A stretch of DNA of 64,000 nt from Escherichia phage PE37: sequence record NC_054929.1; one strand, written 5' to 3'. Every line of letters begins with the position of its first letter. The stretch's first letter is position 1. A program made the translations under genes and the position numbers. The notes beneath the pieces were generated by a model. The model worked only from the letters and a program-made list of their open reading frames with translations. It did no database searches and was not told the DNA's origin. This document shows, in pieces, positions 40 to 45,487 of this stretch.

Positions 40-69
40 GTTTACAAGACTGTTCCTCTGTGGTATTAT
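40..69 (+). promoter_or_regulatory. T4-type early promoter (-35 GTTTAC, 18-bp spacer, -10 TATTAT)
   Basis: GTTTAC 40-45, TGgTATTAT 61-69; same architecture recurs ten times in window. Confidence 0.5.
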
Positions 70-97
70 TACCCTATCAACTACGGAGGAACAGAAA

Positions 98-5546: not shown

Positions 5547-5695
5547 GTCATAATCTTGAAAAGGTAATCGAGCATAATGTAGCTCAGGAACGTAAGTCGT
5601 TCAAGGAATTCGTAGAAAAAATTTTTGAAGAAAATAACACAGACCAGTTTACAAATCAAGTGTCTGATGATATTATAACAAAGTCAACTAATTGA
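5543..5695 (+). CDS. small ORF (50 aa)
   Basis: ATGA-coupled to arn; below track cutoff. Confidence 0.3.
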   Translation: MSHNLEKVIEHNVAQERKSFKEFVEKIFEENNTDQFTNQVSDDIITKSTN

Positions 5696-28209: not shown

Positions 28210-29797
<1,588 letters not shown>

Positions 29798-29800
29798 GCT

Positions 29801-29830
29801 GTTTACAAGTCCCTCATGTTGTGTTATAGT
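29801..29830 (+). promoter_or_regulatory. early promoter upstream of alc, with RBS-complementary arm in the spacer
   Basis: GTTTAC 29801-29806, 18-bp spacer, TATAGT 29825-29830; CCTCATGTT 29812-29820 is complementary to AACATGAGG 29845-29853, which covers the alc SD. Confidence 0.55.
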
Positions 29831-29861
29831 AATCTTACTGACATAACATGAGGACTTTATG

Positions 29862-33125: not shown

Positions 33126-33155
33126 GTTTACTTTACGGTAGAGTTGTGATATTAT
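33126..33155 (+). promoter_or_regulatory. early promoter
   Basis: GTTTAC 33126-33131, 18-bp spacer, TGATATTAT; GGTAGAG/CTCTACC inverted repeat brackets the -10. Confidence 0.5.
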
Positions 33156-33184
33156 AGCTCTACCAAACAAATGAGGAAAACAAA

Positions 33185-35913: not shown

Positions 35914-36090
35914 ATGGCAAAACAAGCTAAAGCAAAGAAAGCAGTTGAAAAGAAAGTTGGTGATTCTAAACGCGCTGGCTACAAGCGTGGGTCGAACTCT
36001 CGTATCAATCAAACTGTTGAGAAGATCATGCGCCGAGCACGTGCGGTTCTTCGAGATGATGCTTCTCGTTTTGGTAAGCAGAAAGCATAA
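35914..36090 (+). CDS. small highly basic protein (58 aa, Lys/Arg-rich)
   Basis: ATG 35914 (alternative upstream ATG at 35872); followed by strong terminator. Confidence 0.4.
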   Translation: MAKQAKAKKAVEKKVGDSKRAGYKRGSNSRINQTVEKIMRRARAVLRDDASRFGKQKA

Positions 36091-36094
36091 GTTA

Positions 36095-36120
36095 AGGACT
36101 CCTTCGGGAGTCCTTTTTTA
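36095..36120 (+). terminator. intrinsic terminator
   Basis: AGGACTCC-TTCG-GGAGTCCT followed by TTTTTT. Confidence 0.7.
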
Positions 36121-36143: not shown

Positions 36144-36176
36144 GTTTACAGTATGGTTCCTTTGTGATAGTATTAT
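36144..36176 (+). promoter_or_regulatory. early promoter
   Basis: GTTTAC 36144-36149 and TGATAGTATTAT -10 region; imperfect inverted repeat spanning -10 and SD. Confidence 0.5.
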
Positions 36177-36200
36177 CTTACACAAACAAAGGAGAATAAA

Positions 36201-36533
36201 ATGAAAACGATTAATCTGAACGCTGCAGTTAAGACTAAATGCTTCAATGGTAAATATGATGAAACTATGTGGTTCTTAATGGCAGTTGAAGGTGATATTA
36301 TTGAAGTAGAAACAACAGAAGGTATGGGAACAGATTTCACCTTTACAATTCAAGTTCATAATTTCTTTACTGGTTGGATTTATGAATTGAATACAGTAAT
36401 CGTTGGAAAAATTGAACAAAATGAATTAGGCGAATGGTATTATGTTACAGCTCGCCAACGTGCCGAACGTTTGATTGAGAAGATGAAAAAAGTTGGTAAA
36501 CTTGACATGAAGCACTGGAAAGTAGTAAAATAA
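36201..36533 (+). CDS. hypothetical protein (110 aa)
   Basis: AAGGAGAA SD then ATG. Confidence 0.55.
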   Translation: MKTINLNAAVKTKCFNGKYDETMWFLMAVEGDIIEVETTEGMGTDFTFTIQVHNFFTGWIYELNTVIVGKIEQNELGEWYYVTARQRAERLIEKMKKVGKLDMKHWKVVK

Positions 36534-36535
36534 TT

Positions 36536-36564
36536 GTTTACTTTGGTACAGGATATGATATTAT
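36536..36564 (+). promoter_or_regulatory. early promoter
   Basis: GTTTAC 36536-36541, 17-bp spacer, TATTAT; perfect 8-bp inverted repeat GGTACAGG/CCTGTACC (36545-36552 / 36568-36575) brackets the -10. Confidence 0.55.
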
Positions 36565-36601
36565 ATACCTGTACCGCAATTAAACATCTCGGAGAATAAA
36601 A

Positions 36602-40718: not shown

Positions 40719-40903
40719 AAGCTTACTTAGAAACAATTGTCGTGGCTCAAAAAGAAGGTGGAGATGTTTCTACTTCTGTATCACAAATCATGATTGAATT
40801 TATAGATGCATATGCTTATAATAAATTCACAGAAACTTTTGATGCTTATGAAAAAGGTCCAAAGTTTGAAATATATCGTACTCTCTTACAAATAGATTAT
40901 TAA
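40715..40903 (+). CDS. hypothetical protein (62 aa)
   Basis: ATGA-coupled to ligase. Confidence 0.45.
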   Translation: MKAYLETIVVAQKEGGDVSTSVSQIMIEFIDAYAYNKFTETFDAYEKGPKFEIYRTLLQIDY

Positions 40904-40926
40904 AGGCCTTCGGGCCTTTAATTTTA
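40902..40926 (+). terminator. intrinsic terminator
   Basis: AAAGGCC-TTCG-GGCCTTT followed by AATTTTAT. Confidence 0.6.
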
Positions 40927-40932
40927 TAAATA
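40925..40932 (+). promoter_or_regulatory. late promoter (TATAAATA) for alt
   Basis: exact TATAAATA about 24 nt upstream of alt ATG; Alt is a virion-packaged late protein in T4. Confidence 0.6.
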
Positions 40933-43052: not shown

Positions 43053-45110
43053 ATGGAACTTATTACAGAATTATTTGACGGCGCTTCGGCGCCGGTTGTT
43101 AACTTAAATCCTAAGCATAAAATACCACAAATTTTTGCTATTCAAGCCGGCGAAGAAAGCGTGCTTCCTGGATTTAGATTTTGTACATACACCTCTGGTG
43201 GTGATACGAATAAAAACGTTAAGCCAGGCGATAAAATGATGCATATCGTAATGATAGGTGTTAATGAGAAATTATCGTTAGTTAAGCTTAAAAACTTGGG
43301 TGGAAATCCAATTGGTGTCATTAATGCGGTTTTTGATACTGCTCTTCAAACAATGAAACAGTATAAAATTGATGCATGTTTATTCCGCGTACTAAAAAGT
43401 AAAACAAATGGCGCAGCTCGTCAAATGCAAGTTATTGCTGACCGTTTAGTACGTACTAAAGGAGCAGGTCGATATGTTCTTTTAAAGGAAATCTGGGATT
43501 ATGATAAAAAGTATGCATATATTATGGTTTACCGTAAAAATGCCAATTTAGAAGACATTCCAGGTGTACCTCCTATTTCAACTGAGTTATTCACAAAAGT
43601 TGAATCAAAGGTTGGTGATGTTTATGTAGACGTTAAAACAGGTAATGCTGTTCCTAAAGCTGTTGCTGTTGCCGCTTCTATTGCTTTAGAAAATGATAAG
43701 CGCACGGATCAAGCTGTTATTCAGAAAACTAAAATTAGTCGTCGATTAGCAGCACAAGCTCAATATTCTACTGTCGATGCTTCACTTCAGGGTGATAGCT
43801 TCGCCGCTAAGAAATATCAAGAGTTTGAATCTAAAGTTCCGGTATATAAAGCAGAAGGACCAATGAACTCTGGCGTTATTCAGATTGGTTCAAACTTCAG
43901 CAAAGGAGCTATCGGTGGTATGAGAAGTGCTTCTCGTTTTAAATCTAATGATTATGAACTAGAAAGTTTCCGAAATCATATTGCATTAGCCCATGCACGT
44001 TTACGCGATCCATCTATCAAGCTGCAGAGCGATACATCATATCAAGGTTCCCAGGAATATTTAAAGAATAAAGACTTCTTTAATTACAAAACTGATAAAA
44101 TTTTAAGCGATCTTGCTGATATTAATATTTCTAATAGTTTTGATGTTATTAAGAAAATTATCAATGATTTAGTTAAAGGTTCTAAAGCTACACCAGATGA
44201 AAAGACAGCTATTATTCAATTTGTAATGAATGGAATTTATAAATTAATTGATGAATCCGCTGCTCAGGCGTATGAATATGCAAGCACTGAAGTAACTCCA
44301 AAAGGATTAACTCAGGCTGAGTCCGATGTAATTGAAGATTATTGTGCAGATTCATATGTTGAAATGAACTCGTTCCTCTTGGGTAAACCAGATTCTACCC
44401 GTGAAGAATACATGGAACGAGCTATTAAACACATCGAGACAATGGATTCTGCCTTTGCCAAAGGATCAGTTCTTCCTCCAGGAACTACGCTTTATCGTGG
44501 ACAAGAAGTTACCTTTAAAACTTTACGTCATAATATTGAAAATAAAATGTTCTACTTCAAGAACTTCGTATCCACATCGCTTAAACCAAATATCTTCGGT
44601 GAGCATGGTAAAAACTATATGGCTCTAGATGATTCCGGTGCAGTATTTTCTGGTGAAGGAGAAGGTTCCGTTGATGCTGAAGATTTAATGCATATGGGTA
44701 GTCATTCTGCTTATGCGAATGAAGATGCTGAAACTAGCGTGGGTATGGTAATAAAAGGAGCTGAGCGAATTAAAGTTATCGTTCCAGGTCATTTATCAGG
44801 ATTTCCATCAGAAGCTGAAGTTATTCTACCGCGTGGAATTTTGCTGAAGATTAATAAAGTGAGTACTTACTTTATGAAAGAAACTGCTTATAACAAGTAT
44901 CTAATCGAAGGTACAATCGTTCCTCCTTCTGAACAATTAGAAGAATCAGTATATGATGGCGACCATCTAATGGAAACTGGTGAAGTTCGTCCAATGGCTG
45001 GATTTAATCAATTCCTTGTAGAAGAATCAAAAGAAGAGGAAAACGAAGTTTCTCAAATCTTAGCTTCTTTGGTTAACATCAACGGAATGTCTAAAAAGTT
45101 CAAGATGTAG
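43053..45110 (+). CDS. second Alt-like ADP-ribosyltransferase paralog
   Basis: 685 aa; N-terminal ~235 aa about two-thirds identical to Alt by eye; divergent middle; retains R (LYRGQ), STS (FVSTSL) and ExE (EAE) motifs; AAGGA SD 6 nt upstream. Confidence 0.8.
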   Translation: MELITELFDGASAPVVNLNPKHKIPQIFAIQAGEESVLPGFRFCTYTSGGDTNKNVKPGDKMMHIVMIGVNEKLSLVKLKNLGGNPIGVINAVFDTALQTMKQYKIDACLFRVLKSKTNGAARQMQVIADRLVRTKGAGRYVLLKEIWDYDKKYAYIMVYRKNANLEDIPGVPPISTELFTKVESKVGDVYVDVKTGNAVPKAVAVAASIALENDKRTDQAVIQKTKISRRLAAQAQYSTVDASLQGDSFAAKKYQEFESKVPVYKAEGPMNSGVIQIGSNFSKGAIGGMRSASRFKSNDYELESFRNHIALAHARLRDPSIKLQSDTSYQGSQEYLKNKDFFNYKTDKILSDLADINISNSFDVIKKIINDLVKGSKATPDEKTAIIQFVMNGIYKLIDESAAQAYEYASTEVTPKGLTQAESDVIEDYCADSYVEMNSFLLGKPDSTREEYMERAIKHIETMDSAFAKGSVLPPGTTLYRGQEVTFKTLRHNIENKMFYFKNFVSTSLKPNIFGEHGKNYMALDDSGAVFSGEGEGSVDAEDLMHMGSHSAYANEDAETSVGMVIKGAERIKVIVPGHLSGFPSEAEVILPRGILLKINKVSTYFMKETAYNKYLIEGTIVPPSEQLEESVYDGDHLMETGEVRPMAGFNQFLVEESKEEENEVSQILASLVNINGMSKKFKM

Positions 45111-45139
45111 TTTACAAGGCCCTCATGTTGTGTTATAGT
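45110..45139 (+). promoter_or_regulatory. early promoter with RBS-complementary arm in the spacer
   Basis: GTTTAC 45110-45115, 18-bp spacer, TATAGT 45134-45139; CCTCATGTTGTG 45121-45132 is the exact reverse complement of CACAACATGAGG 45151-45162, which covers the SD. Confidence 0.55.
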
Positions 45140-45170
45140 AGTCTTACTGACACAACATGAGGAACACAAA

Positions 45171-45461
45171 ATGAAATCTTCTTTGCGCTTTTTAGGTCAA
45201 GAACTCGTCGTTGAAGGCGTTATTCCCGCTGATAACGCTTTCAATGAAGCAGTTTACGATGAATTTATCAAAATTTTTGGAACAGATAAAAAGTTCGGAA
45301 TTTTTCCTTCTGAAAATTTTTCAAAGCCAGAACAGACTGAAAGTATTTTTCAGGGTGTAGTAACAGGTAAATTTGAGTCAGAAGCTCCGGTAAAAATTGA
45401 AGTTTATATTGAAGAAACCTCTGTTGCTTCAGTTGCTGCTTTTATTTCATTCCGTAAATAA
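45171..45461 (+). CDS. hypothetical protein (96 aa)
   Basis: GAGGA SD 45159-45163 then ATG 45171. Confidence 0.55.
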   Translation: MKSSLRFLGQELVVEGVIPADNAFNEAVYDEFIKIFGTDKKFGIFPSENFSKPEQTESIFQGVVTGKFESEAPVKIEVYIEETSVASVAAFISFRK

Positions 45462-45465
45462 AAAT

Positions 45466-45487
45466 ATGGGGACCGAAAGGTCCCCAT
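45466..45487. terminator. bidirectional terminator hairpin between convergent ORF 45171-45461 and gene 54
   Basis: ATGGGGACC-GAAA-GGTCCCCAT with T-rich flanks on both strands. Confidence 0.6.

Follow-up and report, generated by a model that had tools for sequence, protein, structure and literature searches.

For the timing of gene expression T4 serves as the reference, and reviews explain the fall in early protein synthesis only in part, by promoter shut-off and by RegB. Two kinds of described element stand close to the one reported here. It has been established experimentally for T4 e, soc, 49 and I-TevI that the initiation region of long early transcripts is masked by a hairpin and that a late promoter lies inside this hairpin (PMC3014915). 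The T4-like phages also contain promoter-early stem-loop (PeSL) cassettes (Arbiol 2010, PMC2839356; Comeau 2014, PMC4122927), and ndd.4/ndd.5 is one published site of PeSL exchange. The present study deals with RNA hairpins that enclose early promoters in a stretch of 64,000 nucleotides from Escherichia phage PE37 (NC_054929.1), which is called the window throughout.

Paired arms around early promoters

The 4-kb stretch around the finding shows 98% identity to Escherichia phages AR1, RB51 and Ac3 (Tequatrovirus). Gene names at the sites were taken from the annotation of Ac3, RB51 and T4, and Pfam matches were obtained for Alc, Alt.-3 (DUF5498) and gp30.8. The + strand is the early-gene strand of the window, and a motif scan found 10 strong early promoter-gene units on it; the arn promoter at 5648 is additional to these 10 and was removed by the SD filter in later scans. 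Rfam covariance models, applied to the whole window at gathering thresholds, gave zero matches.

The sequence-only reading had claimed that at three early promoters the spacer that separates GTTTAC from the -10 box contains the exact reverse complement of the sequence covering the downstream SD. Site 1 (45110) lies in the 60 bp that separate alt.-2 from alt.-3, site 2 (29801) in the gap between rnlA and alc, and site 3 (40) upstream of ndd.4, a gene of 37 codons. All three complements were found where they had been placed (45121-45132 with 45151-45162, 12 bp; 29812-29820 with 29845-29853, 9 bp; 50-58 with 86-94, 9 bp), and at each site the left arm does lie within the spacer and the right arm over the SD. 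When G-U pairs are admitted, each of the three helices grows to 15 bp, and the arms are given below at this extended length, together with a fourth instance, at gene 30.8, which goes beyond the earlier claim.

45110-45139, + strand: alt.-3 early promoter; -35 GTTTAC at 45110-45115, sigma-70 hexamer TTTACA at 45111-45116, 17-nt spacer
45134-45139, + strand: hexamer of the extended -10 (TGtTATAGT) of the alt.-3 promoter; predicted start near 45146
45121-45135, + strand: alt.-3 left arm, CCTCATGTTGTGTTA, within the promoter spacer; carried only by RNA started upstream
45148-45162, + strand: alt.-3 right arm, TGACACAACATGAGG; SD GAGG at 45159-45162, alt.-3 ATG at 45171
29801-29830, + strand: alc early promoter; -35 at 29801-29806, -10 TATAGT at 29825-29830
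29812-29826, + strand: left arm of the alc hairpin
29839-29853, + strand: right arm of the alc hairpin; SD GAGG at 29850-29853, ATG at 29859/29862
40-69, + strand: ndd.4 early promoter; -35 GTTTAC at 40-45, -10 TATTAT at 64-69
50-64, + strand: ndd.4 left arm, CTGTTCCTCTGTGGT
80-94, + strand: ndd.4 right arm, ACTACGGAGGAACAG; SD GGAGG at 85-89, ATG at 98
36144-36194, + strand: early promoter of gene 30.8, the fourth instance
36157-36165, + strand: gene 30.8 left arm, TTCCTTTGT
36186-36194, + strand: gene 30.8 right arm, ACAAAGGAG, with the SD; ATG at 36201

The geometry is common to the three sites. The left arm takes up the spacer behind GTTTAC, the loop of the hairpin holds the -10 box together with the predicted start site, and the right arm includes the whole SD, with its 3' end 3-8 nt from the ATG. 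Both the helix and its position can be read directly from the DNA. Start sites were predicted from spacing, about 7 nt after the -10 box. The promoters at the sites are consensus matches (10/12 plus an extended -10), and the stop codon of alt.-2 (45108-45110) shares bases with the -35 of the alt.-3 promoter. It should be noted here that the promoters of alc and alt.-3 are near-identical paralogous copies of one cassette of about 55 bp and therefore count as one independent event. Similarly, ndd.4 and nrdC.8 carry copies of one cassette, with 3-4 matching places per genome, and in the T4 nrdC.8 copy of this ndd.4-type cassette the -35 and -10 signals are annotated. The four window promoters contain three unrelated arm sequences in identical geometry.

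Two forms of the RNA and their predicted translation

The energy of the duplex between spacer and 5'UTR was computed as -24.0 kcal/mol for alt.-3, -23.7 for alc and -25.3 for ndd.4, as compared to a mean of -7.8 +/- 2.4 and a minimum of -15.4 kcal/mol in 108 control cross-pairings of other early promoters of the window. Folding of read-through RNAs about 100 nt long gave -29.3 (alt.-3), -33.7 (alc), -23.9 (ndd.4) and -20.5 kcal/mol (30.8), with z-scores of -4.3, -4.9, -3.8 and -3.4 in the same order and with the SD inside the stem, whereas RNAs beginning at the predicted +1 fold at only -2.5, -4.8, 0 and 0 kcal/mol with z near 0. Exposing the region from SD to AUG would cost 14.7 (alt.-3), 11.7 (alc), 19.0 (ndd.4) and 11.4 kcal/mol (30.8) in the read-through RNA as against 4.5, 3.8, 1.2 and 0.5 kcal/mol in the promoter-initiated RNA, so that read-through carries an extra penalty of 8 to 18 kcal/mol. 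Both the stability of the hairpin and the contrast between the RNA forms are computed quantities. The sequence-only reading had predicted that a read-through transcript would hold the SD in a hairpin and that a transcript started at its own promoter would leave it free, and computed folding bears out both parts; the comparison of the two 5' ends by RNA folding, which it had put forward as a check, returned a strong hairpin for the former and an unstructured leader for the latter.

It is proposed that each element is a self-contained unit for early expression, with a sigma-70 early promoter, a short leader and an SD, nested in an RNA hairpin. Since the start site lies in the loop, RNA from the cassette's own promoter would be made without the 5' arm and its SD would be free. 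RNA begun farther upstream, at an early, a middle or a late promoter, would contain both arms, with the SD locked in a helix of 14-15 bp, and 30S subunits would therefore be excluded. As a result alt.-3, alc, ndd.4 and 30.8, and likewise regB and nrdC.8 elsewhere, would probably be translated only during the period in which early promoters fire, and these genes would remain silent when longer middle and late transcripts run across them. For the translational block and the role in timing the argument is by analogy with T4 e, soc, 49 and I-TevI. Promoter-dependent sequestration of the SD as a timer of early genes is the best-supported of the mechanisms considered; the interpretation of the sequence-only reading is supported in part, and we hold it with moderate confidence.

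Candidate sources of read-through RNA are present upstream of two of the sites.

28620-28646, + strand: site resembling a middle promoter (MotA box ATGCTT followed by TACTAT), upstream of rnlA; RNA from here is predicted to read through into alc
40925-40932, + strand: late-promoter consensus TATAAATA just upstream of alt; predicted source of late RNA through alt and alt.-2 into alt.-3

A strong terminator at 40900-40921 precedes the late-promoter consensus. The scan gave no convincing intrinsic terminator between the 40925 promoter and the alt.-3 hairpin, and the first terminator past alt.-3 is a bidirectional hairpin at 45466-45487. No terminator was found by the scan between the middle-type promoter at 28620 and alc either, and in T4 itself the interval from alt to alt.-3 has zero predicted terminators. 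With later-class promoters upstream and no terminator intervening, read-through is therefore likely at alt.-3 and alc. Upstream of gene 30.8 an intrinsic terminator lies at 36094-36115.

The protein time courses of T4 bear on the same point. The T4 proteome has been sampled at 0, 1, 3, 5, 8, 12, 20 and 30 min, and in these data Alt.-3 reaches about 1.4e9 by 5 min and then stays at 1.5-1.9e9, a plateau from 5-12 min, while Alt, encoded upstream of Alt.-3, stands at about 2.7e7 at 5 min and has risen about 40-fold, to about 1e9, by 30 min; RegB is flat from 5 min (PMC9697503 Table S3). The same work places alc, alt.-3 and 30.8 in the class early RNA/early protein, and rnlA in the class early RNA/late protein (PMC9697503). 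These time courses fit a silent read-through RNA, which is not to say that they prove it, and the plateau of RegB can also be explained by the known self-cleavage of RegB.

Distribution of the hairpins and alternative roles

The complete genome of the T4-like phage HP3 was assembled for a survey in which a unit was defined as GTTTAC, a spacer and TAnnnT, followed by an SD and an ATG. It was found that HP3 has 35-36 such units, every one on the same strand. In 15 of 35 promoters spacer and leader can form an ungapped helix of 9 bp or more (G-U allowed), as compared to 4.4% of cross-pairings, and the right arms of these helices fall into two discrete position classes. In class I (n=7) the right arm begins 0-3 nt past the -10 box and the SD is untouched. 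In the SD class (n=6) it begins 8-12 nt past the -10 box and covers the whole SD; these helices are ungapped, 9-17 bp long, and end at their 3' side 3-6 nt ahead of the ATG. The members of the SD class are alc, alt.-3, 30.8, nrdC.8, ndd.4 and regB, the last recognised by Pfam REGB_T4. By ensemble energies, freeing the initiation region in the read-through RNA costs at least 11 kcal/mol at 10 of the 35 HP3 promoters, a cost reached in 4.2% of 1140 spacer swaps. The SD-masking design exists at 6 to 10 of 35 early promoters of HP3. The cost of opening the SD, taken over all 35 HP3 promoters, shows no overall shift (Mann-Whitney p = 0.12), and SD masking is therefore a property of a subset of promoters. 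Among promoters from four genera, the spacer is joined to the SD by an ungapped helix of 9 bp or longer in 6/32, as against 1.3% of 988 cross-pairings. Cross-pairing and spacer-swap controls were used here instead of a composition-preserving spacer shuffle, which was discarded because C/T-rich spacers still pair with the SD and make it a poor null. Scans of IMG/VR and of metagenomes for the cassette returned few T4-like contigs. The wider generalization, that a quarter or more of T4-type early promoters could be self-insulating cassettes with translation solely from their own promoter, is put forward tentatively, as a possibility that we would not yet call probable.

The main rival is that the SD-covering hairpins are one positional class of a wider family of promoter-straddling hairpins which has its primary role elsewhere. 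According to it, a generic PeSL stem-loop would act on transcription or RNA coming from upstream: it could attenuate or terminate, induce a pause, stabilise a 3' end or signal processing. It would also preserve the cassette for recombination, the overlap with the SD being incidental to very short leaders. Class I hairpins, which spare the SD, are as common as those which cover it, and in the window two further early promoters (33137-33164 and 36544-36576) have straddling hairpins of the sparing kind. Since promoter-straddling hairpins that spare the SD are equally many, masking of the SD may be neither the only nor the original role, and these hairpins suggest a broader one. One of the PeSL papers places the stem-loop at five positions, among them the interval from -35 to -10 and an overlap with the -10, and one RB49 stem reduced lacZ expression like a strong terminator (PMC2839356). 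The duplication of the cassettes within genomes also agrees with the generic role, as does the publication of ndd.4/ndd.5 as an exchange site. Against intrinsic termination stands the absence of a U tract after any of the four hairpins, where the scan gave no terminator; an intrinsic terminator was rejected on this ground, the tails after the stems being AACACAAAA, ACTTTATGA and AAAATG. Nor are the right arms spread: they occupy two discrete positions, and the SD class always takes in the full SD and ends 3-6 nt from the ATG. In addition, a helix of 14-15 bp over the SD would block initiation regardless of any other role. We consider this rival rather unlikely.

A DNA-level element is improbable, whether it be a cruciform, a palindrome bound by a protein, a help in opening the promoter or a site of recombination. 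It would account for a repeat that brackets the -10 box at about 40% of early promoters, for the implication of PeSLs in recombination, and for a report that the 14 nt between one such arm pair were once inverted in T4. However, the strand asymmetry of the arms is strong. When A-C is allowed in place of G-U, which is the pairing that a helix of the opposite strand would need, a helix of at least 9 bp is found at only 4/35 HP3 promoters, which is background level. The helices are thus long only with G-U (G-T on the sense strand) and not with A-C, and this indicates selection on the sense RNA. Antisense RNA folds weaker, as computed for sites 2 and 3 (alc and ndd.4). The arms are wholly different between cassettes, and a single binding protein is therefore disfavoured.

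Polymorphisms among copies are exchanges between Watson-Crick and G-U pairs only. In the alc/alt.-3 cassette (13 distinct copies) 6/15 pairs are variable, all of them by one-sided changes, and 100% of cells remain paired. In the ndd.4/nrdC.8 cassette (8 copies) three internal pairs vary by wobble and just two terminal pairs break. Pairing is kept at 9/9 variable internal stem pairs across the 21 distinct copies of both families. Within these two families no stem pair has changed on both sides, and variation is by wobble only; between the HP3 class I paralogues at 102533 and 138097 two double-sided changes can be read from the arm sequences. We infer that selection probably acts on the helix of the sense-strand RNA. 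The design reaches beyond one genus. In Salmonella phage Melville (Gelderlandvirus) the alc promoter has a like design with unrelated arms, ATCTCCGTTT/AAACGGAGAT (L033 19947-19956/19986-19995), and a second case, of 11 bp, occurs at another promoter. In Mosigvirus AV114 SD pairing is absent from the orthologous promoters of alc and alt.-3; what the alc or alt.-3 promoters of AV114 and VR25 have instead is small repeats, located within the spacer or about the -35, and the SD is unmasked.

Translational coupling, in which ribosomes ending the upstream gene would melt the hairpin and make downstream translation proportional to upstream translation, is very improbable. Upstream stop codons are indeed nearby (alt.-2 at 45108-45110, rnlA at 29795-29797), but the first paired base lies 10-17 nt past the stop codon, and at 30.8 the distance is about 66 nt (30.9 ends at 36090 and the left arm begins at 36157). 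A terminating ribosome unwinds roughly 7-8 nt, and the distances from stop to stem exceed this figure. T4 Alt.-3 moreover does not track the late rise of Alt, and coupling was rejected on the stop-to-stem distance together with the kinetics of the T4 Alt and Alt.-3 proteins. Chance, or functionless hitch-hiking of duplicated sequence, can draw on the fact that alc/alt.-3 and ndd.4/nrdC.8 are each copies of one cassette, but is hardly credible for at least five unrelated arm sequences in one geometry in two genera, with cross-pairing and spacer-swap controls at 1-4%.

Comparison with known systems

Intrinsic terminators are also stable intergenic hairpins, and the present elements differ from them in having no U tract, a loop of 12-15 nt and a stem that is not G+C-rich. 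The likeness to PeSL cassettes is much more detailed. Like a PeSL, the present element combines a strong early promoter with a stem-loop that overlaps it and ends, on the 3' side, in an SD and start codon, and its copies are repeated within the genome beside small variable ORFs (alc/alt.-3, ndd.4/nrdC.8). On the other hand, the role published for PeSLs is termination or attenuation plus recombination, and the stems of T4 and PST are drawn upstream of the promoter (PMC2839356, PMC4122927). Pairing between spacer and SD, or a role in translation, was not found in the accessible portions of these papers (PMC2839356, PMC4122927). For the early-promoter version of a translation hairpin no description was found in the literature, in a search that possibly did not cover the T4 papers of the 1980s-90s, and an earlier mention is possible.

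If a quarter or more of the T4-type early promoters are indeed self-insulating, synthesis of Alc, RegB and Alt.-3 would stop automatically when the early promoters are switched off, despite the middle and late transcripts that cross these genes. It would make a general, cis-encoded contribution to the abrupt drop of early protein synthesis, and the constraint would be carried along with mobile PeSL cassettes. In T4, proof of a translation hairpin that depends on the promoter is limited to late genes. A mirror image of it at early promoters, as at alc and regB and with a design conserved between genera, would place one more simple cis-acting control on the shut-off of early genes, would give the PeSL cassettes a translational function and would be a compact model for insulated expression units in synthetic constructs.

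The closest parallel in mechanism is with T4 e, soc, 49 and I-TevI. In those genes the SD and/or AUG is paired in a stable helix of the longer transcript, and here stems of 14-15 bp do the same. A promoter inside the hairpin gives a shorter RNA without the 5' arm, as is also predicted here from the inferred start site. That shorter RNA is translated in T4, which belongs to the same phage group as the present elements. The two differ in the class of the internal promoter. In T4 e, soc, 49 and I-TevI it is a late promoter (TATAAATA), and early and middle read-through is silenced; in the present elements it is an early promoter of the sigma-70 type (GTTTAC, 17 nt, TAnnnT) with the 5' arm in its spacer. 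The timing would thus be reversed with respect to the late hairpins of T4, and it is middle and late read-through that is predicted to be silenced. The element may be best described as a PeSL-type cassette that would work like the hairpins of e, soc, 49 and I-TevI with their timing turned round.

Promoter-to-SD cassettes shared between unrelated genes

The promoter-to-SD cassette was found to be present twice at unrelated genes, at window positions 29801-29855 and 45110-45164. The cassette at window 40-97 has its second copy at T4 nrdC.9/nrdC.8 (comparison sequence L034), again an unrelated gene. Both cassette copies of one genome often carry the same variant, CCTCGTG in each of the T4 copies and CCTCATG in each of the PE37 copies. 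This sharing of variants within a genome suggests gene conversion or recombination between the cassettes. Recombination between cassettes has already been proposed for the promoter-early stem-loop cassettes (PeSLs) of T4-like phages (PMC2839356, PMC4122927). In an IMG/VR contig (2938479101_000006, L041) the promoter GTTTACAAGACTGTTCTTCCATGG has a left arm of the ndd.4 type and a different leader without the complement, as if recombination had produced a cassette that no longer forms the hairpin.

Hairpins straddling the start site

A second class of promoter-straddling hairpin, class I, also has its left arm in the spacer; its right arm, just past the -10 box, covers the start site and does not reach the SD. 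The following were found in the window:

33137-33145/33156-33164, class I hairpin at the cd.3/cd.2 promoter
36544-36552/36568-36576, class I hairpin at the 30.7 promoter
21190-21194/21210-21214, class I hairpin, a weak case

In phage HP3 class I hairpins are present at 7 of the 35 early promoters, and one paralogue pair among them has two both-sided changes of paired positions. The T4 record (AF158101) remarks at 133300-133313 (L003 12301-12314) that an earlier report gave these 14 nt as the inverted complement. This segment, equivalent to window ~33146-33159, is exactly the loop of the cd.3/cd.2 class I hairpin, between the arms GGTAGAG and CTCTACC. The middle-type promoter upstream of rnlA (window 28620-28646) likewise has an inverted repeat, CCACATGGAGTGTGG, in its spacer.

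Start-codon annotation and the alt region

The annotated start codons of alc in the Mosigvirus AV114 (OR352944, L031 19959) and of alt.-3 in phage VR25 (NC_028925, L032 34862) lie within the early promoter's -10 box. Since a start with an SD is present ~40 nt downstream in each case, which would be the true one, the annotated starts are probably mis-called.

At window 40900-40932 a strong intrinsic terminator (TTAAAGGCCTTCGGGCCTTTAA, then T-rich sequence) is directly followed by the alt late promoter TATAAATA, an arrangement that may be described as a compact switch. Further along, the product of alt.-2 (window 43053-45110) is a paralogue of the ADP-ribosyltransferase Alt and is full-length at 685 aa, whereas T4 has at this position two short remnants, alt.-1 and alt.-2.
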